From an uncultured Acidobacteriota bacterium (GTDB lineage: Bacteria; Acidobacteriota; Terriglobia; Terriglobales; Acidobacteriaceae): a stretch of DNA of 64,000 bases. The notes below the pieces were generated by a model that did no database searches, was not told the origin of the DNA, and saw only the letters and a program-made list of their open reading frames with translations. Location: contig CAWGSE010000016.1 in NCBI GenBank assembly GCA_963825205.1, positions 27,421-91,420 on the forward strand, read 5' to 3'. Of the stretch, positions 880 to 58,923 are shown piece after piece (positions within the stretch are counted from its first letter, which is position 1; each line of letters begins with the position of its first letter). A program made the translations under genes and the position numbers.

Positions 880-1899
880 CTAACGCATGAAGAAGTTTCC
901 CGAGGGATGGTTCGATCCGTGGATCAGCGAGTGGCAATTGGTGCATCCCCGGTTGAAGTTCTTGATGGAACCGAGTGGCTGCGGCTGCGTCGGGTGGCGG
1001 CTGGCGACGTGGCAGGAATCGCAAACCCGAGGCATGCGCACTTTCAGCAACTGCGGGTTGCTGCTGCCGTGCGCCTCGTGACAGTTCGCGCAGTTCTCCA
1101 TGACCGGAGGATGCTCCCACAGGAACGGTCCCCGGCGTTCGGCATGGCAGCTATAACAATTCTCGTTGATGGTGCTTTGAATCAGCTGGCTCGGGTTGGG
1201 ACTGCCGTGCGGATTGTGACAACTGGTGCAGGTGACTTTGCCTTCCCGGTACGGCATGTGAGAGGAGCGCTGCAACTGTGCCCGCCGCATCTGATGGCAC
1301 TGGAGACACAACTCGGGTTGCGGCTTTTTAGTGCCCGCGTGTTCGGTCAGGGGCGCGCCGTAGCGTGATTCCGGAGCGAGTGCGGCATATCGCTCCGCGG
1401 GGCTGCCGTAGTGGACCAGATGACAATCCACGCAAGCCATGGCTCGCGATTCGTGCGGGCTGCCCCTCCAGAACATCTGGTTGCCTTTCGTATGGCAGGA
1501 CAGGCAAGCGGAATTCTGTTCCTCCACCGGGGTCGGAGAATCCTTGGTGAACCGGATGGGGATCGTCTCTTTGCCGCCGCCGGCATCGACGTGGGCTTTG
1601 CCTGGCCCGTGACAGGCTTCGCAGCCCCGCGCATCTAACGGGGTCTTGGGATGCGCCATCGCATTGCCCATGATGGTATGGACGAAGCTCTTGTGCTGTT
1701 CCGCGTGGCAGGTTACACAAACTTCGGAGCCCACATAATCGCCATCAGGCTGGGCCGCCGGTGGAGCAGCGTGGGAAAGTTCGCCGCCAGGTTCCTTTTT
1801 CTTCTCTTCCGCACTGCCCTGGTTCTGGGCCAAGGCGATGCTCCAGGTTCCGAGCGTGATGGCAAGGAGAATCAGCGTACACCCGAATTTCCGTGTCAA
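880..1899 (-). CDS. Decaheme c-type cytochrome, MtrA/DmsE/PioA family
   Basis: ORF 880..1977. Ten CxxCH motifs counted: CVTCH, CEACH, CLSCH, CVDCH, CLQCH, CTSCH, CYSCH, CANCH, CDSCH, CTNCH. Start placed at in-frame TTG 1899 (AGGA upstream), which gives the signal peptide LTRKFGCTLILLAITLGTWSIALA. ATG 1977 is also possible. Confidence 0.88.
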   Translation of the reverse strand: MTRKFGCTLILLAITLGTWSIALAQNQGSAEEKKKEPGGELSHAAPPAAQPDGDYVGSEVCVTCHAEQHKSFVHTIMGNAMAHPKTPLDARGCEACHGPGKAHVDAGGGKETIPIRFTKDSPTPVEEQNSACLSCHTKGNQMFWRGSPHESRAMACVDCHLVHYGSPAERYAALAPESRYGAPLTEHAGTKKPQPELCLQCHQMRRAQLQRSSHMPYREGKVTCTSCHNPHGSPNPSQLIQSTINENCYSCHAERRGPFLWEHPPVMENCANCHEAHGSSNPQLLKVRMPRVCDSCHVASRHPTQPQPLGSIKNFNRGCTNCHSLIHGSNHPSGNFFMR

Positions 1900-2095
1900 G
1901 GTTTTTTCCTCCGGCGAAAACCGACGCGTCGCCGTTAGATTCAACGCGCACTGCGTAGCTGAACCCGGGAACCGCAAGCAGCTCTAGAGCGCTCGCCGCC
2001 CGGGATTGTCCATGAATGTAGTGGGAATCTTACGCCAGCAACCTACCGAATTGTAGGGGATATTTTGCTCAGTCCCCGATTCCTCCTTCGCGCTC

Positions 2096-2929: not shown

Positions 2930-3780
2930 ATGCTGAAAACGTTAACGCGTAGTGCGGTCCTGCTGACTCTCATCTTTGTCTGGTTCCCGCGTGCGCAGGC
3001 GCAGGAGTCACTCGAAGCGCTGCAAAAGCGTGCCGAGAAGGGCAGCCCGGAAGCTCAGACGGCCGTGGGTACGATGTACCGCAACGGTGAGGGCGTACAT
3101 CAGGACCTGGGAGAGGCGGTGCGGTGGTTTCGCCTGGCGGCCGTCCAGGGTTACGCCGAGGCCGAGAACAGCCTCGGGTTCCTCTACGATTACGGTGGCG
3201 GAGTTCCCATTGACCACCAGGAAGCGGCCCGCTGGTATCGCAAAGCCGCCGAGCAGGGCCATGCTGAGGCAGCCTTAAACCTGGGCTGGCTTTACGACAG
3301 CGGTCAGGATTTTCCAATTGACCATGCGGAGGCGCGCGCTGGTACCACAAGGCGGCCGAGCGGGGGAATGCAGACGCGGCCTTCGACCTGGGAGTGATTT
3401 ACGAGAATGCGCAAGGTGTCGAGCAGAATTACGTCGAGGCCATCCGCTGGTACCGCATGGCCGCAGACCAGGGAATGCACATTGCTCAGCTTAGCCTCGG
3501 CCGAATGTACGCCGGCGGCCGCGGCATCCTGAAGACAGATCCGGAATTCCAGAAACTTGTGCAGACCCTGAAGGCGAGAATTTCGCAAAAGCCCAGAGGT
3601 TCTGATGCGACCATCAAACACTTTGTGACCGTGCTCCGTCAGTTTTCGCGGATGAAGATGGCCTTCTTCGCGCTCTCGTGTTGCTTCCGCAGGGCACGGG
3701 CGGTATCGGCGAGGGGAGTGGTGGGACGCGGCGGCGGAGCCACTTCCCAGAGGGGCCGCTCGCCCTTCGCGGAACTGTAG
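2930..3780 (+). pseudogene. Sel1 (SLR) repeat protein with signal peptide, interrupted by a 1-nt frameshift in the GCGCGCGC run near 3331-3340
   Basis: ORFs 2930..3397 and 3394..3780 carry consecutive Sel1 repeats (AVRWFRLAAVQGYAEAENSLGFLY, AARWYRKAAEQGHAEAALNLGWLY, then AIRWYRMAADQG). The shifted frame reads RWYHKAAERGNADAAFDLGVIYENAQGVEQ across the junction. This could be a sequencing error. Confidence 0.8.
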
Positions 3781-25837: not shown

Positions 25838-28154
25838 ATGAAGTCTCAGTGCTGGTTCAGCCTCTGCTGCGTGGTTAGGCTCATTTTCTGCGTGGGTGGA
25901 CTCGTTGTGGGTACCTGGGGAAAAACCGGGATACCAGTCGCAGGCGTCATCCCATCTAAAAGCACTCCAGTAAATGAATACGTCGACTCCCGGCTTTGCG
26001 CGGGTTGCCATAGTCGAATCTATGCAAACTATCGGCAGACGGGAATGGCCAAATCCCTGTTTAAGCCCGCTCCTGCGAACACAATCGAAGACTATAAAGG
26101 GAACACGCAGTTCTACCACGCCTTGTCTGACACGCACTTCTCGATGATTTTTCGCGACCAGGCCTATTACCAGAGACGGTGGCAAATCGGCTCCGACGGA
26201 AATGAGACGAATGTCGAAGAGATGAAAATTGACTACGTGATAGGTGCAGGCGACCACTCGAGGTCCTACCTACACCGTACCCCACGAGGAACGTTGATCG
26301 AACTTCCTCTGGGTTGGTATACGGAACGAGGTGGATATTGGGGCATGAGTCCAGGATTCGATTCCCGTCATCCGCAGACTCGGCGATTGGTTTCGTATGG
26401 ATGCGTATTTTGTCACGATGGATATCCGCAAGTGCCCTCCGGAAGCGATGCTCCGGGGGCTGATCCGGTCTTTACTGGGGACCTTCCTGAAGGGATTGAT
26501 TGTCAACGATGTCATGGTCCGGGCGGCCAACATGTTCGAGCAGCCCAGGCAGGCGCTGAGCTTCTCGGACATCAGTAGCAGAATTGTGAATCCAGCACGG
26601 CTCAGTTCAAAGCTCCAGATGGAACTCTGCATGCAATGCCACCTGGAGCCGACGAGCGGCCGCCTCCCAGCTTTAGTGAGACGATTTGGTCGCGGGATAT
26701 TTTCCTACATCCCAGGGCAACCCCTTGAAGACTATGTCCTGTACTTCGATCATGCCCCTAACACCGGATACGATGACAAATTTGAATTCGTGAGTGTTGC
26801 CTATCGACTTCGGAAATCTCGTTGCTTTCTAGAGAGCAAGGGGGCGCTGACCTGCCTGTCCTGCCATGATCCACATCGCAAGCTCCCCGTGGGCGAGGAA
26901 GCGACAAGCTACTATTCCGGACAATGCCGTCATTGTCATGAACCCGTCATTAGCACCTTGGTTGCCCAGGGCAAGCACCCGGATGCAGCGGACTGCGTTT
27001 CGTGCCACATGCCAAAAAGGAGAACTGAGGATGTAGTTCACGCACTTATCACGGACCATTTCATTCAGCGTAAGGTCCCAATGCGTGATCTTCAGGCAGA
27101 GCTTCAGGAACGTCATTTGACTGAGGCAGAGGAATACCACGGAGAAGTGGTCCCGTATTATCCGTCGCCGCTGCCGAAAACGAGCGAAAACAGCCGATAC
27201 CTTGCTGTAGCGCAAGTGGCTCGCCAGAACAATCTGAAGAAAGGAGTAGCCGACCTGGCCCGGGAAATGAACCAACATTTTCCTGGCGAGGAGGAGTTTT
27301 ACCTCGCACTTGGGGATGCCCAGAAAAACAGCGGAGATCCGACAGCGGCCGTTGAAGCGTTTGAACAGGCAGTTCGGATCGAGCCAAAATCTGTGACAGC
27401 ATTACGGTCCTTGGCCGCTAGTTTGAAAGCATCGGGGAATGTCTCACGAAGCGAGCAGGTATTGAACCGGGCGCTACACTTGGCACCTCTCGACGGTAGC
27501 ACCTGGAATCAATACGCGATGCTTGAGGCCGACCTTGGGCGAACCGGTCGCGCAATCGAGAAACTTCAGAAAGCGCTTGCGCTAGATCCAGATTTGCCGG
27601 AGGGAGACCTGAACCTTGCCACCCTCTTTGTCCGCGAAGCGCAGATGGAACCTGCCGAAACAGCCTTGAAACGCGCATTAAGCATTGATCCGTACGACGC
27701 GGCTGCTTACGATCTGATGGGGCGGGTGCTGGCAGGGAAGAATGAAATGTCTAGGGCTCTCGATAGCTTCCAAAAAGCAACGCATCTTCGTCCGGACTAT
27801 GGACCCTATCTTTATAACTATGCTCTGGCGCTGGTAGCCGCCCAGCGGTTAGACCAAGCGCGGACACAAGCGCGGGCCGCAGTGAACGCGGATCCTAATC
27901 TTGCTGAAGGCCACGAATTGTTGGGCGGACTTCTCGCTAGAGACCAGCGATTGGCGGAGGCGGTGAGCGAGTATCAGCAGGCGGTGAAACTACAGCCTGG
28001 TTTCAGTCGGGCACACCTGGACTTGGGGTTGGTTCTGGCCGCACAAGGAGATATGCGGAGCGCGACTGAACACCTACGCAAAGCCGCAGCCGGCAAAGAC
28101 CCGAATGTCGTCCGCCAAGCAGCCCAGGCCCTCCAGCGAATCAGCAATCATTAG
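25838..28154 (+). pseudogene. Multiheme (7 CxxCH) cytochrome c fused to a TPR domain, interrupted by a frameshift near 26555-26560
   Basis: ORFs 25709..26578 and 26397..28154. Heme motifs: CAGCH, CVFCH, CQRCH | CMQCH, CLSCH, CRHCH, CVSCH. Long TPR region. Signal/anchor from ATG 25838 (MKSQCWFSLCCVVRLIF). This could be a sequencing error. Confidence 0.8.
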
Positions 28155-42690: not shown

Positions 42691-42792
42691 CAGAGTGGTA
42701 CACGTGCGCCAACCATTTCGCCGGCATCCAATATGCTAGGCTTAAATAGTTTTATACTATGGGGTACGTGTCCCCTCTGAAGGAAACCAGAT

Positions 42793-45818
<3,026 letters not shown>

Positions 45819-46446: not shown

Positions 46447-46508
46447 AAGCTTTTTACCGCAGAGATCGCAGAGAAGGCCGCAGAGGACGCGGAGAAAACT
46501 CTTAACCG
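46447..46508. repeat. CCGCAGAG/GCGGAGAA-type repeat arm (left arm of an inverted pair)
   Basis: AAGCTTTTTACCGCAGAGATCGCAGAGAAGGCCGCAGAGGACGCGGAGAAAACTCTTAACCG matches the reverse complement of 46873-46935. Confidence 0.85.
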
Positions 46509-46579
46509 TTCAATTGCGTGACACCCGAGCTCGTGAAGGCCACCGGCTGCGAGTGCTGCTAAATCCCTCCGATCTGGAA

Positions 46580-46789
46580 GCTGTTGTGCGGTAGCTGCCG
46601 TGATTGAGCTGCCGTGATTGAGCTGCCGTGATTGAGCTGCCGTGATTGAACTGCCGTGATTGAGCCGCTGTGATTGAGCCGCTGTGATTGAGCTGCTGTG
46701 ATGTAGCTGCTGTGATGTAGCTGCTGTGATGGAAATGCTGTAATGGAAATGCTGTAATGGAAATGCTGTAATGGAAATGCTCTGTCCCT
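46580..46789. repeat. 14-bp tandem repeat array (13 clear units plus degenerate end units)
   Basis: Units from 46594: 4x GCTGCCGTGATTGA, ACTGCCGTGATTGA, 2x GCCGCTGTGATTGA, 2x GCTGCTGTGATGTA, GCTGCTGTGATGGA, 3x AATGCTGTAATGGA. Confidence 0.95.
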
Positions 46790-46935: not shown

Positions 46936-47494
46936 GCCCGCCGCCAATCGCCCGAAACGTCATTTCCATAGCGGAACTCCGGCTCTCGCGCTTCCATTTG
47001 AAAAATAAACCCGCGTACGTGTCAGCGATGTAGTCCTGGGTCGAGATTCCCAGGAGTTTCGCAGTACGGTCTATCCACCGCGCCGGCCCTTCGATCTCGC
47101 CGAATTCTCCAATCGGCGTCACATCCAGCACCAACTGGCCCCGCCCGTCGCTCCACTCCGCCCGGAGCTTCTCGTAACGGAAGCTCGGCCGGAACCGCAG
47201 CGCCAGCAGAATGGCCTCCATCTTCTCGCCGTCGGCCACTTTGGTTTCGGTTTCCATGCGTGTTTTGTGGCGGCCCACCGTGCCCTTCGCCTTGTGCGTC
47301 AGCACCCAATCCTTCCCGTATTTGCGAAGCCGCAGCAGCTCGCCGCGCTTGCGCAGGGGCTGTCCCGGCAAATCGTAAAGCGTGTTCATTTCATGAGTGC
47401 GCGGCGTGACCAGTCGAAACTTCGCCGCCCGCAGCCGGCGTGTGAGTGCACGCAAGTTTGTAATCCGAAACTTGATCTCGATTTCTTTGGGCAT
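46889..47494 (-). CDS. CYTH domain protein (CyaB-like class IV adenylate cyclase / triphosphatase fold)
   Basis: N-terminal MPKEIEIKFRI (ExExK). The C-terminal tail QKLLPQRARRLRRGR is encoded by the repeat arm. Confidence 0.8.
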   Translation of the reverse strand: MPKEIEIKFRITNLRALTRRLRAAKFRLVTPRTHEMNTLYDLPGQPLRKRGELLRLRKYGKDWVLTHKAKGTVGRHKTRMETETKVADGEKMEAILLALRFRPSFRYEKLRAEWSDGRGQLVLDVTPIGEFGEIEGPARWIDRTAKLLGISTQDYIADTYAGLFFKWKRESRSSAMEMTFRAIGGGQKLLPQRARRLRRGR

Positions 47495-47502
47495 GGGGAC
47501 AA

Positions 47503-47647
47503 GGCTCTAGGCTTTAGGCTCTCGCAACTTTTCCGGCTGCGCCAACAGAATTTCACATTGCGCGTTGCGAGCCAGAAGCGGCCGCAAAACACGAGAGCCA
47601 GAGCCTAGAGCCTAGAGCCTAAGCCTAAAGCCTAGAGTCCAAAGCCC
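47503..47647. repeat. Composite hairpin repeat with 7-nt GGCTYTA-type arms
   Basis: The left arm GGCTCTAGGCTTTAGGCTCTCG pairs with the right arm CGAGAGCCAGAGCCTAGAGCCTAGAGCCTAAGCCTAAAGCCTAGAG. An inner 8-bp stem CTCGCAAC/GTTGCGAG is also present. It lies between the DedA-rhodanese stop and the CYTH start. Confidence 0.8.
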
Positions 47648-47653
47648 GCCCTG

Positions 47654-48634
47654 CTAACCAAACGTCGGCAACTTCACCAGATCCTCGCGCGGCACCGACT
47701 CCAGCGGTTGTCCCGCCTTGCGCCACGCCGCCAGCCCGCCGACAATGATAAACGCGTTGAATCCCTTTTCCCGCAGCATGTGCGCCACCCGGGCGCTGGT
47801 GCCTTCGCGCACTCAAGTGCAGTAGAGATAGATATCTCGATCCTTCGGAAGTTTCTTGAGTTCTTCCTCGAAGTTGTTGGGTTCGATGCGGATCGAGCCC
47901 TTGATGCGCGCCATCTCCGCGTCATAATAGCCGTGGCTGCGGACGTCCACCACCAAAACCCTCTCCGCTTCCGCCGAGGCCAGCTTCTCAATCAGTTCCT
48001 GCACCTGCACGCGCGGCACCACCCGGTACACTCGGTTCTTCCGGACCAGCCACAGCCGGTACGCGACGTACACCACGACGCCCACAAGCAGGACTTCTTC
48101 AATGGCACGTCCCGCGGTCTGGAAGGTGCGGCTGATGGCCTTGAGGAAGTCGCGACCCAGCAGCCCCAGCAGGAAATAGGCAAGCACGTACAGCGCGGCG
48201 CCCGCCAGGTCGAATCGCAGGAACTGGGAAAAGGGCATCTTCATGCTGCCCGCCAGGGGAGGCCCCATGGTGTTCACGCCGGGAATGAACTTGGCCACGA
48301 CCAGCGTGCTCTTGCCGCGCTTGTAGAACGACTCGGCGGAGCGCAGGATGCAGGTCTCGGGATTGGCCGACACTTTGCACAGGAATCCGAGAAGCGCCCA
48401 GCCCGAATGCCGGCCGGCAAAGAATAATAGGGTATCGCCCAGCACCATCGCGGCCAATGCGAGTGGCAACAGAACGGGAGCGCTCAACAGGTGCCCGGCG
48501 GCCGCCGCACCCGCGACAACCAGACCCAGGGCCGCGGGCACGGGTAGCCCAATCGCCTCCGCGAAGACCATCGCGACGACAATGCTGTATCCGTGCCGGG
48601 AGATCAACGAAACCAGGTCCGCCATGCGCTTCAA
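47654..48634 (-). CDS. DedA-family membrane domain fused to a rhodanese domain; in-frame TGA (47813-47815) at the expected catalytic Cys position, candidate selenocysteine
   Basis: ORF 47813..48634 ends ...KDRDIYLYCT-TGA. The same frame continues VREGTSARVAHMLREKGFNAFIIVGGLAAWRKAGQPLESVPREDLVKLPTFG to TAG 47654-47656, which completes the rhodanese domain. Confidence 0.6.
47780..47812 (-). promoter_or_regulatory. SECIS-like hairpin immediately 3' of the in-frame UGA
   Basis: The RNA can fold as GUGCGC-GAAGG-CACC-AGCGCCCG-GGUG-GCGCAC. An alternative fold is GCGCC-CGGGU-GGCGC, starting 16 nt after the UGA. Confidence 0.4.
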
Positions 48635-48750: not shown

Positions 48751-49152
48751 ATGTCCAGTTCAATAGCGACTGCCACACGCCGCCACATCAACCTTCCCGG
48801 CCGTACCTCGGCACTTCCTTTCAGCGATGCCGTGCTGGTGGGAGAGACACTTTACCTGGCTGGCCGGATCGGCCTCGACCCGGTGACCGGCCGCGCCCCC
48901 GCCGACGTGAGTGCCGAGATCCAACTGCTCCTCGATGGCGTCGAGGCCGTGCTGGCCGAGGCCGGCATGAAAATGGACGACCTGGTGTCGGTGCAGATAT
49001 TTTCTCCCGACCTTTCGCTGTGGGAGCCTTTCAACGCGGCGTATGTGAAGCGCTTTTCGAAAGAATTGCCGGCGCGGGCGTTTATCGGGTCCGGACCGTT
49101 GTTGCTGGGCGGGCGCTTCGAGTTGATTGGCATGGCGGTGCGAAGATCTTAA
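48751..49152 (+). CDS. RidA/YjgF family reactive-intermediate deaminase-like protein
   Basis: ORF track. FSDAVLVGETLYLAGRIGLDPVTG...ARAFIGSGPLLLGGRFELIGMA. The stop TAA lies inside the left terminal inverted repeat of the next element. Confidence 0.8.
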   Translation: MSSSIATATRRHINLPGRTSALPFSDAVLVGETLYLAGRIGLDPVTGRAPADVSAEIQLLLDGVEAVLAEAGMKMDDLVSVQIFSPDLSLWEPFNAAYVKRFSKELPARAFIGSGPLLLGGRFELIGMAVRRS

Positions 49153-49247
49153 ACCGCAGAGGGCGCGGAGAACGGCCGCAGAGCACGCAGAGAAACTCCC
49201 AGGAGAGTTCTGACACCGGGAAAGGTCCGAGGAAAAGCGCGGCCGCC

Positions 49248-49413
49248 TCAGCGATCTCTGCGGCAGTTCTCGGCGCACTCTGCGGTGGGCTCGTCTTCCC
49301 GATAGTCATTCACCATCCGCCGAACCCCGTCCCGCAACAGAACCACGTGGAAGTTGATCACCAGCCCAACCTGCAGGCCGAGCAGCCTGAGATGGGAGAG
49401 CAATTGTGCCTCG
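49248..49413 (-). pseudogene. 3' fragment of a GxxExxY gene created by a 244-bp tandem duplication
   Basis: ORF 49248..49553 contains HLVDEAQLLSHLRLLGLQVGLVINFHVVLLRDGVRRMVNDYREDEPTAECAENCRRDR, which duplicates the C-terminus of ORF 49492..49977. Confidence 0.8.
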
Positions 49414-49491
49414 TCAACCAGATGCTGGGAGCCTTCAAACTTCCAGGAGAGTTCTGACACCGGGAAAGGTCCGAGGAAAAGCGCGGCCGCC

Positions 49492-49914
49492 TCAGCGATC
49501 TCTGCGGCAGTTCTCGGCGCACTCTGCGGTGGGCTCGTCTTCCCGATAGTCATTCACCATCCGCCGAACCCCGTCCCGCAACAGAACCACGTGGAAGTTG
49601 AGCAGCAGCCCAACCTGCAGGCCGAGCAGCCTGAGATGGGAGAGCAATTGTGCCTCGTCAACCGGATGCAACTGATCCTTGCATTTCAATTCAACCACAA
49701 CCCGGCTATCTACCAGCAGATCCGCGCGAAACCCACACTCCAGCTTCACGCCTTCGTAAATTAAAGGCACACTCTTCTGTTGAATCACGCTGAGCCCTTG
49801 CGTCTTAAGTTCATAAGCGAGACACGCCTCATAGGCGGACTCCAGCAAGCCAGGACCGAGGCGGCGATGAATCTTGATTGCCGCTCCGATGATTCGATCG
49901 GTCAATTGAAACAT
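49492..49914 (-). CDS. GxxExxY family protein
   Basis: Start placed at ATG 49914 (MFQLTDRIIGAAIKIHRRLGPGLLESAYEACLAYELKTQG). The GLLESAY motif matches GxxExxY. The C-terminal tail is encoded by a repeat arm. Confidence 0.85.
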   Translation of the reverse strand: MFQLTDRIIGAAIKIHRRLGPGLLESAYEACLAYELKTQGLSVIQQKSVPLIYEGVKLECGFRADLLVDSRVVVELKCKDQLHPVDEAQLLSHLRLLGLQVGLLLNFHVVLLRDGVRRMVNDYREDEPTAECAENCRRDR

Positions 49915-50050
49915 CGGGATTCGGCCAGTCCGCTGCGAAATGGGCTGCAGGCTACGGGATGCAAGGGGAAGGCTCATGAAGCCGACGTTAGAGCAGGAAA
50001 TATGCGAGGTCTGTAACGGTTGTCACGCGAACACGTGAGCCCTTCTGGAT

Positions 50051-50197
50051 TTTCTCTGCGAACTCCACGGTAGTTCTCCGCGAACGCTGCGGCAGTTCTC
50101 CCCGAACTCCAGGCAGTTCTCCGCGAACTTTGCGGCAGTTCTCCGCGACTTTACGGCGGTTCTCTGCGCCCTCTCCGCGCCCTCTGCGGTTTAAGAT
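50051..50197. repeat. Six to seven tandem 21-22-nt units (TTCTCCGCGAACTNTGCGGCAG type) forming the right arm of the element
   Basis: Units read from 50051: TTCTCTGCGAACTCCACGGTAG, TTCTCCGCGAACGCTGCGGCAG, TTCTCCCCGAACTCCAGGCAG, TTCTCCGCGAACTTTGCGGCAG, TTCTCCGCGACTTTACGGCGG, and TTCTCTGCGCCCTCTCCGCGCCCTCTGCGGTTTAAGAT. Confidence 0.9.
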
Positions 50198-50201
50198 GTT
50201 G

Positions 50202-51209
50202 CTACTTCTCCCGCGCCACGACAAACTCGGGAGCCCACAGCAAAGCCCGCTTGATCTCCGAGTCAGGAAATGTGCAGATCGCCTTGCGCGCTGCTTCCGC
50301 GTAGTGCGTGGCCCGGGCATGCGCGGCTTCGAGGGCGCCGTAGCGGCTCAAAATTGCCAGGATATCCGCGTGGGTCACGCCGTTAAAGGCGCGATCGCGC
50401 AGCACGGTCGCGATTTTCTCGCGCTCCGCCGGCGTGCAGCGCTCCAGCGCGTAGATCACCGCCATGGTGACCTTGCCCTCGCGCAGGTCGCTGGCCACAG
50501 GCTTGCCCAGCACACTCTCCGAAGCGGTCAGGTCGAGTACGTCGTCCACGATCTGGAATGCCATGCCCAGGTTGCGGCCGTAGGAACCGGCAGCCTCTTC
50601 CTGCTCCGGGGTCGCTTCCCCCAGAATCGCGCCCAGCCGCATGCACACCGAAAACAGGCACGCGGTCTTGCGGAAGATCAGGTCGAAGTGCTCGTCGAGC
50701 GTGATCAACTTGCCCAGCTTTTCCATCTGCAGAAGTTCACCTTCGACCATCTGCTGGGTGAGTTCGATCAAGGTGTCAAGCACGCGGAAGTTGCGCTCCT
50801 GAACCGCGATCTTGAAGGACTGCATGTAGAGCCAGTCGCCGGCCAGCACGCACTTGGAGTTCCCCCAGCGGGTGTTCGCCGCGGGTCGGCCACGCCGGGT
50901 CTGGGCTTCGTCGATGATGTCGTCGTGGACGAGCGTGGCCGTATGAATGATCTCCACCACGGCTCCCAGGCGCACGGCCCCGGTGCCTTTGTACTGAAAA
51001 AGCTTCGCCGCCAGCAGCAGAAGCGCCGGCCGAATGCGCTTACCGCCGCCTTCCCGCAGGTACTCGCCAATCTCGGTGATGGCGGACACGTCGGAGACAG
51101 TGTCCTGCCCGAATTCCGCCTCGATGGCCAGCAGGTCATCGTGCAGCAGTTCGAAAATCTCTTTCCCGTTGATGGCTGAGGGTGTACTCAATCCGCCGCT
51201 TTCACTCAA
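50202..51209 (-). CDS. Polyprenyl diphosphate synthase (trans-isoprenyl, IspB-like)
   Basis: Aspartate-rich motifs LVHDDIIDE and FQIVDDVLD. Confidence 0.9.
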   Translation of the reverse strand: MSESGGLSTPSAINGKEIFELLHDDLLAIEAEFGQDTVSDVSAITEIGEYLREGGGKRIRPALLLLAAKLFQYKGTGAVRLGAVVEIIHTATLVHDDIIDEAQTRRGRPAANTRWGNSKCVLAGDWLYMQSFKIAVQERNFRVLDTLIELTQQMVEGELLQMEKLGKLITLDEHFDLIFRKTACLFSVCMRLGAILGEATPEQEEAAGSYGRNLGMAFQIVDDVLDLTASESVLGKPVASDLREGKVTMAVIYALERCTPAEREKIATVLRDRAFNGVTHADILAILSRYGALEAAHARATHYAEAARKAICTFPDSEIKRALLWAPEFVVAREK

Positions 51210-56690: not shown

Positions 56691-56822
56691 GCTCTTCCCC
56701 ACCTTCTCCCCGAAACAAAACTCAAACTTCATGATAGGGAACACAAGTATCCAGCGTCAAACCAGCCGCGCTCTCCCCTTTTGCTACAATCACTAGTTTA
56801 ATCAACAAGTTAGAGGGGCCTT

Positions 56823-58923
56823 GTGTATCGCACGCTGGAACGCCGTTTAATCCATCACGTTAGAGATTTCCTGCGCCGCACCTACGACCTCGATCTCCCG
56901 AAAATCGTGGTGGAGCAACCGCCCAAGGTCGAACTGGGCGAGTACGCCATGCCGCTTGCCTTTGAGCTGGCCAAGAAACTGCGTAAGGCGCCGCGCAAGA
57001 TTGCCGAGGAAATCGTGGCCGGGATCGAGCCGATTGCAGGATTTGAGAAGCTGGAAGTCGCCGGGGCCGGCTACATCAATGCCCGCGTGCACCGCGGCGC
57101 GGTAGCTGCGGGGTTGCTGGCCGACGAGAATCCCCAAGTCGACGTGCCCGCCGGCAAAATTCTGGTCGAGCACTCCAGCATCAACCCCAACAAGGCCGCG
57201 CACATCGGCCACCTGCGCAATGCGATTCTGGGCGACACGTTTGTCCGGTTGCTTCGTTTTGCCGGCAGGGAAGTCGATGTTCAGAACTACATTGACAACA
57301 CCGGCGTACAGGTGGCCGACGTGGTCGTGGGCTTTCTCTATCTCGAGAAGAAATCCCGGGCTGAGATCGAACGGCTTGCCGCTCAGCCGCGCTTTGACTA
57401 CGAGTGCTGGGACCTCTACGCGCGCGCCTCGCAGTGGTATGCCGAGGACAAGCAGAACCAGCAGGCACGGCTTAAGACCCTGCACGAAATCGAAGCCGGC
57501 GGAAACGAAGTCGCTGCCATCGCCGACCTGATTTCGGTGGCGGTGCTTCGCCGCCACCTCGAGACCATGGACCGGCTCGATATCGAATACGACTTCCTGC
57601 CGCGGGAGAGCGAAATTCTGCATTTGCATTTCTGGGACGCCGCTTTTGCGAAGCTAAAAGACGCGGGGGTGCTGTTCTACGAGACGGAAGGGAAGAACAA
57701 GGGCTGCTGGGTGATGCGGCGAGCGGGCACTGCGAAAAAATCTGAAACCGCAGAGGTCGCGGAGAACGCCGCAGAGGACGCGGAGCAGGCTGCAGAGGAG
57801 GCGGAGAAAGCTGCAAAGGACGCGGAGAAGCCAGCAGGGGACGCCGAGAAGCCAGCCAAGGACGCCGAGTCTCCCGATGTGGTCTCTGCGGAAGATCAGA
57901 AAGTGATTGTCCGGTCCAACGGTACCGTCGGCTACGTGGGCAAGGACATCGCCTACCACATGTGGAAGTTCGGGCTGCTCGGACGCGACTTCGAATACTG
58001 CAGGTTTTACAAATATCCGAACCAGCACCAGGTGCTGGATTTCGGCGGCCCAGGGCGAGCAAGACCATCCTCATTTCGGCGACGTGGCTGAAATCTATAA
58101 CGTCATTGACGCGCGCCAGGCGGAGGCGCAGAACACCGTCATCGAAGCCCTGCGCGGGCTCGGCCACAACGACGCCGCCGACCATTACACCCATTTTTCC
58201 TACGAGATGGTTGCGCTGACTCCGCGCTGCGCCGCCGAACTGGGCTACCAGTTGTCGGACGAGGATAAGGCCCGGCCCTACATCGAAGTCTCGGGCCGCA
58301 AAGGCTTTGGCGTGAAAGCGGATGACCTGCTCGACCGCCTCATCGCGTCCGCAAAAGCGGAAGTCGATCCGCGCCATCCCCAGTTGAGCGACCAGGAGCG
58401 GCGCAGCATCGCCACCCAGATCGCCATCGGAGCTTTGCGCTACTTCATGCTGAAGTACACCAAGCCATCGGTCATCGCCTTCGACTTCAAAGATGCGTTG
58501 AGCTTCGAGGGCGAAACCGGGCCCTACGCGCAATATGCCGTGGTGCGCGCCACTAACATTTTCCGCAAAGGGGGATTCGATCCCGACAAGTTCAGCCAGG
58601 ACACGTCCAACCATCTCTCGGCGGAGGACTTCGGGAAGTCATTGGCGGGCGAATCGGGCAACGAAATCTGGGAGCTCTGGTTAGCCGCGGCCAAGACTGC
58701 GTACGTGGTGGACCAGTGCATTGCGACCACGGAGCCCGCGTATCTCGCCAAGCACGCATTTCAACTGGCCCAGCTCTTTAACTACTTTTACCACCGCCAT
58801 CCCATCTTGAATGAAGCCGATGAGGGCCGGAAGAAATTTCTGCTGGCCACGGTAGCGGTGGTGCGCCGCGAACTGATGCGTACGCTGGTGGTCCTGGGTA
58901 TCACTGTCCCGCCAGTGATGTAG
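56823..58923 (+). CDS. argS: Arginine--tRNA ligase, interrupted as given by one extra nt at about 58035, and carrying an in-frame repeat-derived insertion
   Basis: ORFs 56823..58091 and 57907..58923. HIGH-type motif AAHIGHLRNAILGD. The frame switch is at YPNQHQV|WISAAQGEQDHPHFGDVAEIYNVIDARQ. The gene is essential, so the frameshift is probably a sequence error. Confidence 0.92.
57740..57896. repeat. CCGCAGAG/GCGGAGAA-type element inserted in frame within argS
   Basis: ATCTGAAACCGCAGAGGTCGCGGAGAACGCCGCAGAGGACGCGGAG...TCTCTGCGGAAGAT. Both ends resemble the 26-bp TIR of the 49146-50197 element. It is translated as SETAEVAENAAEDAEQAAEEAEKAAKDAEKPAGDAEKPAKDAESPDVVSAED. Confidence 0.75.

Follow-up and report, generated by a model that had tools for sequence, protein, structure and literature searches.

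The DedA-rhodanese gene and its product

The 64,000-nucleotide stretch of DNA analysed here, called the window below, comes from an uncultured bacterium of the Acidobacteriota (assembly GCA_963825205.1, contig CAWGSE010000016.1, positions 27,421 to 91,420) and carries on its minus strand a gene in which a DedA membrane domain is followed by a rhodanese domain, with an in-frame TGA that is a candidate codon for selenocysteine (Sec) (Table 1). A mechanical open reading frame (ORF) runs from a TTG at 48634 to this TGA and ends in ...KDRDIYLYCT-stop, but the true start is likely the ATG at 48625, as judged from homologue N-termini of the form M[TA]DL[IV]SLI. Past the TGA the frame stays open for 52 codons (VREGTSARVAHMLREKGFNAFIIVGGLAAWRKAGQPLESVPREDLVKLPTFG) until a TAG. 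Re-translation reproduced the ORF, the TGA and the open frame beyond it as they had been described in the initial annotation, and the repeat element placed there right after the TAG is also present, as a 7-nt array at 47594-47646.

When Cys is put at the TGA, Pfam recognises VTT_dom (DedA; 38.6 bits, cutoff 33.9) and Rhodanese (44.7 bits, cutoff 22.2), i.e., both of the domains first proposed. The rhodanese match crosses the TGA, and the domain is whole only with the TGA read through. The product is then one polypeptide with an N-terminal VTT/DedA and a C-terminal rhodanese domain, which is the layout of PA1209-like DedA-rhodanese proteins.

Table 1. Coordinates of the gene and its parts in the window, with the basis of each assignment.
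Feature	Position	Strand	Basis
Complete DedA-rhodanese gene, predicted selenoprotein (323 codons + TAG)	47654..48625	-	ORF translation, Pfam, homologue N-termini
DedA / VTT membrane domain, residues 40-154	48164..48508	-	Pfam PF09335; alignment to E. coli YqjA
CX8C insert, Cys83...Cys92, FLCKVSANPETCIL	48350..48379	-	Particular to the rhodanese-fused DedA family
Rhodanese domain, residues 219-303, across the TGA	47717..47971	-	Pfam PF00581; sequence and fold matches to solved rhodaneses
Cys269 codon (TGC), Cys of CxU	47819..47821	-	Invariant in all homologues
In-frame TGA, predicted selenocysteine 271	47813..47815	-	TGA in 76/80 and TGC in 4/80 related genomes; Cys in 323-residue homologues
SECIS-type hairpin GCGCC-CGGGU-GGCGC (SECIS, selenocysteine insertion sequence)	47782..47796	-	5-bp stem, 5-nt loop, 16-nt spacer after UGA; frozen synonymous sites
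True stop TAG	47654..47656	-	Homologues end at the matching place, ...LPTF[SG]-stop

The AlphaFold2 model of a Cys orthologue (P0027; mean predicted local distance difference test score 77) has eight helices followed by an alpha/beta rhodanese domain, in which Cys269 is the last residue of the active-site strand and residue 274 the first of the helix that follows. The model matches solved rhodaneses with probability 1.00; the matches in the PDB are limited to the rhodanese part, and none was found for the DedA part. The TGA had initially been equated with the catalytic Cys of rhodaneses. This holds in so far as homologues carry Cys at the TGA column, but the alignments to 6MXV are split between two residues: without gaps, the Sec column coincides with the catalytic Cys of CGGGFRS in domain 1, while with gaps it is Cys269, not Sec, that falls on the catalytic position in domain 2. 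Cys269 and the Sec/Cys271 column, which are both invariant, together form a CxU pair, in the loop Cys269-Thr-Sec271.

The UptA and YqjA/YghB undecaprenyl-phosphate flippases belong to the same DedA fold family as the window protein, and residues E39 and D51 of YqjA are reportedly essential, according to work of the Doerrler laboratory. R130 and R136 have been named as essential as well (PMC10127716). The window family keeps E39 (Asp in some members) and has Lys for R130, but the column of D51 holds Ala, Leu and further residues that are not acidic, and that of R136 Asn, Ser, Gly, Ala or Leu. With the UptA models the score is 44 bits (cutoffs 250-300), and together with the lack of conservation at D51 and R136 this indicates that the DedA domain is probably not a standard undecaprenyl-phosphate flippase. 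The family has in addition a CX8C pair (Cys83 and Cys92) in a basic loop. In alignments A1 and A2 neither Cys varies, relatives of 32-36% identity keep them, and the motif is common to all family members, whether of the Sec or the Cys form, but absent from E. coli YqjA. The CX8C insert and the lack of conservation at D51 and R136 suggest that the substrate differs or that thiols are relayed. After the last membrane helix come five basic residues (RKNRVYRVVPR), and by the positive-inside rule both the rhodanese domain and the CX8C loop are probably cytoplasmic.

The TGA column and the hairpin in related genomes

The locus was scanned in one genome per species (GTDB representatives), which gave 80 loci, nearly all from metagenome-assembled genomes of Terriglobia or other Acidobacteriota. 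The codon at the column in question was TGA in 76 of the 80 and TGC in the remaining four, at the same syntenic locus, and the frame was open and conserved to ...LPTF[S/G/N]-stop in all 80. The neighbourhood is throughout MetRS, TatD, YajQ, polyprenyl synthase, RidA, the DedA-rhodanese gene and CYTH, mostly followed by SecA. The same division is seen in a large protein collection, where more than 80 relatives of 77-91% identity are called at exactly 270 residues, all cut at one place, whereas relatives of 64-69% identity are 323 residues long. The latter read YLYCT-C-xREATSARVA, with Cys exactly at the TGA column in the alignment, and this CTC motif is found in 323-residue orthologues at the same locus. 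The Cys forms share this locus, and TGA and TGC genes are hence orthologous. Comparison of orthologues at this column had been proposed at the outset as a check on the Sec reading, and it thus came out in favour, with Cys in the full-length homologues and TGA in most genomes. One full-length homologue (P0086, from a single 1.3-kb ENA contig) has Arg at the column (YCT-R-AREATS), which may be a TGA-to-CGA change or a read error.

The pattern extends beyond this clade. Among the best 150 representatives of 50%-identity clusters, 33 proteins stop precisely at ...YC[T/S/A/V/D], and another 64 have the full length and a CxC loop, in most cases C-x-C-P-N-E-x-[ST]-[SA]. The Cys loop given in the initial annotation (YCTCPNEATSARVA) is real in such distant members. 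Five short relatives (L089, L090, L093, L094 and L095), with 32-36% identity to the query, the Cys orthologue P0027, all have TGA in their DNA, followed by an open conserved frame (PNEASSARAA...GG[IFL]xxW...) and by the hairpin, at unchanged codon positions. This makes the Sec form old and widespread rather than a peculiarity of a single clade. In the databases these proteins are without exception entered as truncated 'DedA' proteins. Also met was a giant protein of rhodanese repeats, P0129, with 2327 residues and 16 separate stretches matching the rhodanese part of the query.

Codon usage downstream of the TGA is that of a translated sequence. In 73 distinct TGA genes the 52 codons that follow keep their amino acids, while the 4-fold degenerate codons for invariant Gly, Ala and Pro have a codon heterozygosity of about 0.5-0.7; conserved amino acids with ordinary synonymous diversity imply a translated frame. 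The codon directly after the TGA is GTG in the window, but GCG or GCA in most species, and a separate start at this position is hence not conserved. Nor is a genome-wide reassignment of TGA the explanation, since TGA is the normal stop of many genes in the window and, by a crude test of codon-position G+C, the only in-frame TGA with coding character on both sides is that of the DedA-rhodanese gene; no other in-frame TGA gene resembling a real gene was found in the window by this test.

Against this background of free silent variation a few codons stand out. A synonymous-site test over the whole gene covered 185 conserved degenerate codon columns in the 73 distinct TGA genes and gave a mean codon heterozygosity of 0.50, with only five columns at or below 0.05. 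These are ACT at codon -1 (70/71 genes), AGC at +6 (72/73), and GCC at +7, GTG at +9 and GCG at +10 (73/73 each), counted from the TGA. Codon +8 varies just between CGG and CGT. Codons +6 to +10 spell GCGCC-CGKGU-GGCGC, i.e., the hairpin of Table 1, and the one freely varying synonymous site lies in its loop. All five stem pairs form in 100% of cells across 65 distinct sequences, where a lone C-to-U change keeps a wobble pair; one further C-to-U change, in the distant relative L094, also keeps the pairing. Codons +2 and +3 (CGC and GAA; 47804-47809, minus strand) are likewise nearly frozen at their silent sites, as is codon -1 (47816-47818). No conserved pairing partner was found for these three codons, and their freeze may be a context effect of the UGA.

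The hairpin falls within the limits of the bacterial SECIS model. These are 3-9 nt for the loop, 4-16 bp for the stem, 16-37 nt between UGA and loop and an energy of at most -7.5 kcal/mol, and the first or second position of the loop has to be G, with G or U after it (PMC13188914). The corresponding values are a 5-nt loop CGKGY with G in position 2, a 5-bp stem, 21 nt and -9.1 kcal/mol for the centroid hairpin; the gap between the UGA and the stem is 16 nt. Of the two folds that had been put forward, it is thus the short one, with its loop 21 nt past the UGA, that is conserved and fits. The long fold, GUGCGC...GCGCAC with CACC/GGUG, was rejected: 74% of cells pair, which is no better than shuffles, and RNAalifold returns the 5-bp hairpin only, without a conserved lower stem. 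As a pattern of 15 nt the short hairpin is expected 0.3 times per window by chance and was observed once, so its presence in the window alone is not beyond chance and its significance comes only from the comparison with other genomes.

The stem is present in 60/60 distinct TGA forms but in 2/8 Cys forms (Fisher p = 2.6e-7, which is indicative only, as the sequences are related). In the six Cys forms that have lost the hairpin the peptide can be the same; L065 encodes SARVA by AGC GCG CGC GTC GCT, and L092, with the same TSARVA peptide, uses AGT GCA CGT GTG GCA. The TGC orthologue in L086 (6001-6972, protein P0115) has an intact hairpin and the ACT codon and looks like a recent switch from Sec to Cys, while the Cys form L039 keeps the stem but has lost the G's of the loop, which now reads AAGGU.

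Decoding of the TGA and competing explanations

Judged by these comparisons between genomes, translation continues past the UGA, selection acts jointly on UGA and hairpin, and Sec and Cys orthologues exist. The gene is very probably a genuine selenoprotein gene, with Sec read at the in-frame TGA to give a product of 323 residues. Some observations weigh against this conclusion. First, selA, selB, selD and tRNA-Sec were not found in the 64-kb window (ARAGORN, Rfam, and Pfam on 40 large ORFs), where ARAGORN detected no tRNA at all and Rfam no family. Second, double compensatory changes in the hairpin are absent among the 65 distinct sequences, as the hairpin hardly varies; classical covariation is thus missing and the evidence at the level of the RNA is the local freeze of silent sites. 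Third, the folding z-score of the hairpin region alone is +1.23, i.e., thermodynamically it is unexceptional. Fourth, the window assembly seems to contain indel errors at other places (two frames each for SecA and ArgRS), and its sequence is therefore not trustworthy alone, so that the case rests on the other genomes. In related loci no sel genes were among the genes listed in the flanks (up to 10 kb), and ARAGORN found only one tRNA-Glu in 593 kb. Use of Sec is documented in the lineage: Occallatibacter riparius, a member of the Terriglobales, has three known selenoproteins (PMC12013277 and supplement), Acidobacteria have been scored as Sec users (PMC1794560), and Sec-containing hydrogenases have been reported from Acidobacteriota (PMC13582414).

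It is conceivable, although improbable, that the UGA is recoded outside the Sec system, either by a suppressor tRNA for Cys, Ser or Ala or by a Cys insertion similar to that of SelC*/SelB*. Irregular allo-tRNAs that can act as nonsense suppressors occur in Acidobacteria, and a tRNA-Cys that mimics tRNA-Sec (selC*) is found in other phyla, but the same study did not report selC* from Acidobacteria (PMC5389517). That the Sec machinery was not seen in the 64-kb window would agree with recoding of this kind. On the other hand a general suppressor has no need for a gene-specific hairpin frozen beside the UGA, the Sec/Cys pattern with a hairpin is the classical signature of a selenoprotein, and the Terriglobales are documented Sec users; were Cys to be inserted, TGC would serve at no cost.

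A true stop at the TGA would leave a DedA protein of 270 residues with a broken rhodanese, and what follows would be a decaying remnant or a separate small ORF. Every gene caller and database lists the 270-residue product, and the GTG right after the TGA in the window could start such an ORF. This explanation is highly improbable all the same: the 52 downstream codons are under purifying selection in more than 70 species and in the relatives of 32-36% identity, the GCG or GCA found at codon +1 in most species is no start codon, and conservation extends to the entire rhodanese fold, which would be useless if cut within the active-site loop. Nor does much credence attach to the idea that the frozen palindrome GCGCC-N5-GGCGC is an element of the DNA, such as a protein-binding site or a repeat, with no relation to decoding. 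It is a perfect inverted repeat in a region rich in repeats, but it is situated within the coding sequence, always equally far from the UGA, tracks the TGA as opposed to the TGC forms, survives in the 32-36% relatives at different genomic loci, and occurs once in the window. Scarcely credible, finally, is an error of sequencing or assembly, or a TGC/TGT-to-TGA mutation that arose recently in this genome. This had been named initially as the alternative to Sec, and the other likely indel errors in the window (SecA and ArgRS) might lend it some colour, but TGA is found at one syntenic locus in 76/80 species genomes, in five distant relatives and in numerous metagenome contigs that stem from separate projects and sequencing technologies, which excludes an error or a private pseudogene.

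The surroundings of the gene have features of their own. SecA is encoded in two overlapping frames (42781-44319 and 44271-45818, plus strand), and so is ArgRS (56814-58091 and 57907-58923, plus strand); a Sel1-repeat gene is likewise split (2930-3780, plus strand). All three have the look of pseudogenes or of indel errors left by long-read assembly. The DedA-rhodanese gene lies among dense intergenic repeats (46457-46781, 47485-47646 and 49143-50202), which include a 14-nt tandem array (46579-46781), an inverted partner (47485-47525) of the 7-nt array that follows the TAG (AGAGCCT), a 22-nt array (50052-50168) and a 244-nt tandem duplication (49193-49669). An insert of roughly 1 kb, with a PD-(D/E)XK-like ORF (49492-49977), is flanked by the two arms of a 29-nt inverted repeat (49143-49171 / 50172-50200); at this site L002 has no gene and L086 a PDDEXK_3 gene. 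Two further genes of the window are unrelated to the selenoprotein gene, namely one for a multihaem c-type cytochrome with paired CXXCH motifs (883-1983, minus strand) and one for a TPR protein with a weak CXXCH match (26349-28151, plus strand).

Known families, possible function and significance

Both halves of the combination have been described separately. In NCBIfam the rhodanese part comes closest to NF041203, rhodanese_LYCAU (CxU (seleno)protein), at 85.2 bits. This is also the top model for the four other family members tested, at 76-92 bits, and all these scores are below the curated cutoff of 115. The L-Y-C-x-U motif of NF041203 is present in the active-site loop, as LYCT-U in the window and as YCA-U, YCS-U or YCV-U in distant members, and Sec/Cys pairs occur in both families, but NF041203 is a stand-alone protein of about 126 residues whereas the domain in the window is the C-terminal part of a 323-residue DedA membrane protein. 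The CxU rhodanese is listed in selenoproteome surveys as 'rhodanese-like form 3' (PMC13188914) and 'COG0607 form 2' (PMC9312934), in keeping with the earlier statement that such surveys contain rhodanese-like Sec proteins. DedA-rhodanese fusions of the Cys type are known from the COG0586 subfamily of DedA (PMC10127716) and from PA1209 of P. aeruginosa (PMC12893004). They share the N-terminal PF09335 and C-terminal PF00581 and a length of 311-330 residues, and some members of the window family have their CxC(PNE) loop. The function is left open in both papers, one of which notes that the 'connection to UndP is unclear' (PMC10127716). The described members carry Cys, whereas the window protein and most of the Terriglobia orthologues have UGA at the second Cys and a loop C-T-U-x-R-E instead of the C-x-C-P-N-E of the PA1209 type.

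Two further comparisons can be made. The hairpin resembles the bacterial SECIS of the E. coli fdhF type in that it lies within the coding sequence just after the UGA and has G at loop position 2 and G or U at position 3, but it is very short and has no conserved lower stem. TsoB (NF045694; PMC13188914) is also a Sec rhodanese fused to an integral membrane domain and gives a weak match of 24.5 bits, but its membrane domain is DsbD-like and its two Sec residues lie in a UxxxxU motif, and the proteins are not homologous overall. A DedA selenoprotein is absent from the 2026 catalogue (PMC13188914) and from PMC9312934, and there was none among the literature matches listed. The initial impression that a fused DedA-rhodanese(Sec) had not been described thus stands for the Sec form, but it has to be qualified, as Cys fusions and the CxU Sec-rhodanese were already known; what is new is that the two are combined.

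If the UGA is read as Sec, decoding would proceed in the usual bacterial way, with SelB, loaded with Sec-tRNA(Sec), binding the hairpin 16 nt past the UGA, upon which the ribosome would insert Sec at codon 271 instead of terminating and the 323-residue protein would be made. When selenium is lacking the UGA would terminate translation, to give a 270-residue protein without a complete rhodanese domain. In the full-length protein the rhodanese domain would follow the last membrane helix of the DedA domain, probably facing the cytoplasm, and the CxU pair would be a selenol/thiol centre that takes up or hands on sulfur or selenium, or that cycles via a selenenyl-sulfide. The CX8C pair in the basic DedA loop may assist this centre or relay to it, and the chemistry at CxU would be tied to the movement, across or within the membrane, of the substrate of the DedA domain.

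It is tempting to speculate further, although the idea is rather unlikely to prove correct, that the DedA domain and the Sec-rhodanese form one membrane machine for the capture of chalcogens, or else a selenol redox switch that gates a DedA lipid-carrier flippase. In the first case DedA would bring selenite or reactive sulfur or selenium species to the cytoplasmic face, where CxU and CX8C would trap them as a selenotrisulfide or perselenide and pass them on, e.g., towards selenophosphate synthesis. The redox switch stands equal to this as a possibility.

The Terriglobia are among the most abundant soil bacteria, and the UGA form is found in 76/80 of the closest species-level genomes. As NCBI and JGI list just a truncated 270-residue 'VTT/DedA' protein, the family is missed in current counts of selenoproteins. 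It would be a rare instance of an integral membrane selenoprotein. Sec at CxU marks this site as the chemically active centre of DedA-rhodanese fusions such as PA1209 and gives a direct experimental handle on them. DedA proteins have reportedly been linked to selenite uptake in work on Ralstonia metallidurans, and a link of the fusion protein to selenium or sulfur trafficking becomes testable. No dedicated high-affinity selenium transporter is known in prokaryotes (PMC9312934). If chalcogen capture were true, the protein would be the dedicated prokaryotic system for selenium uptake or trafficking that reviews call unidentified, and one that is itself dependent on selenium.

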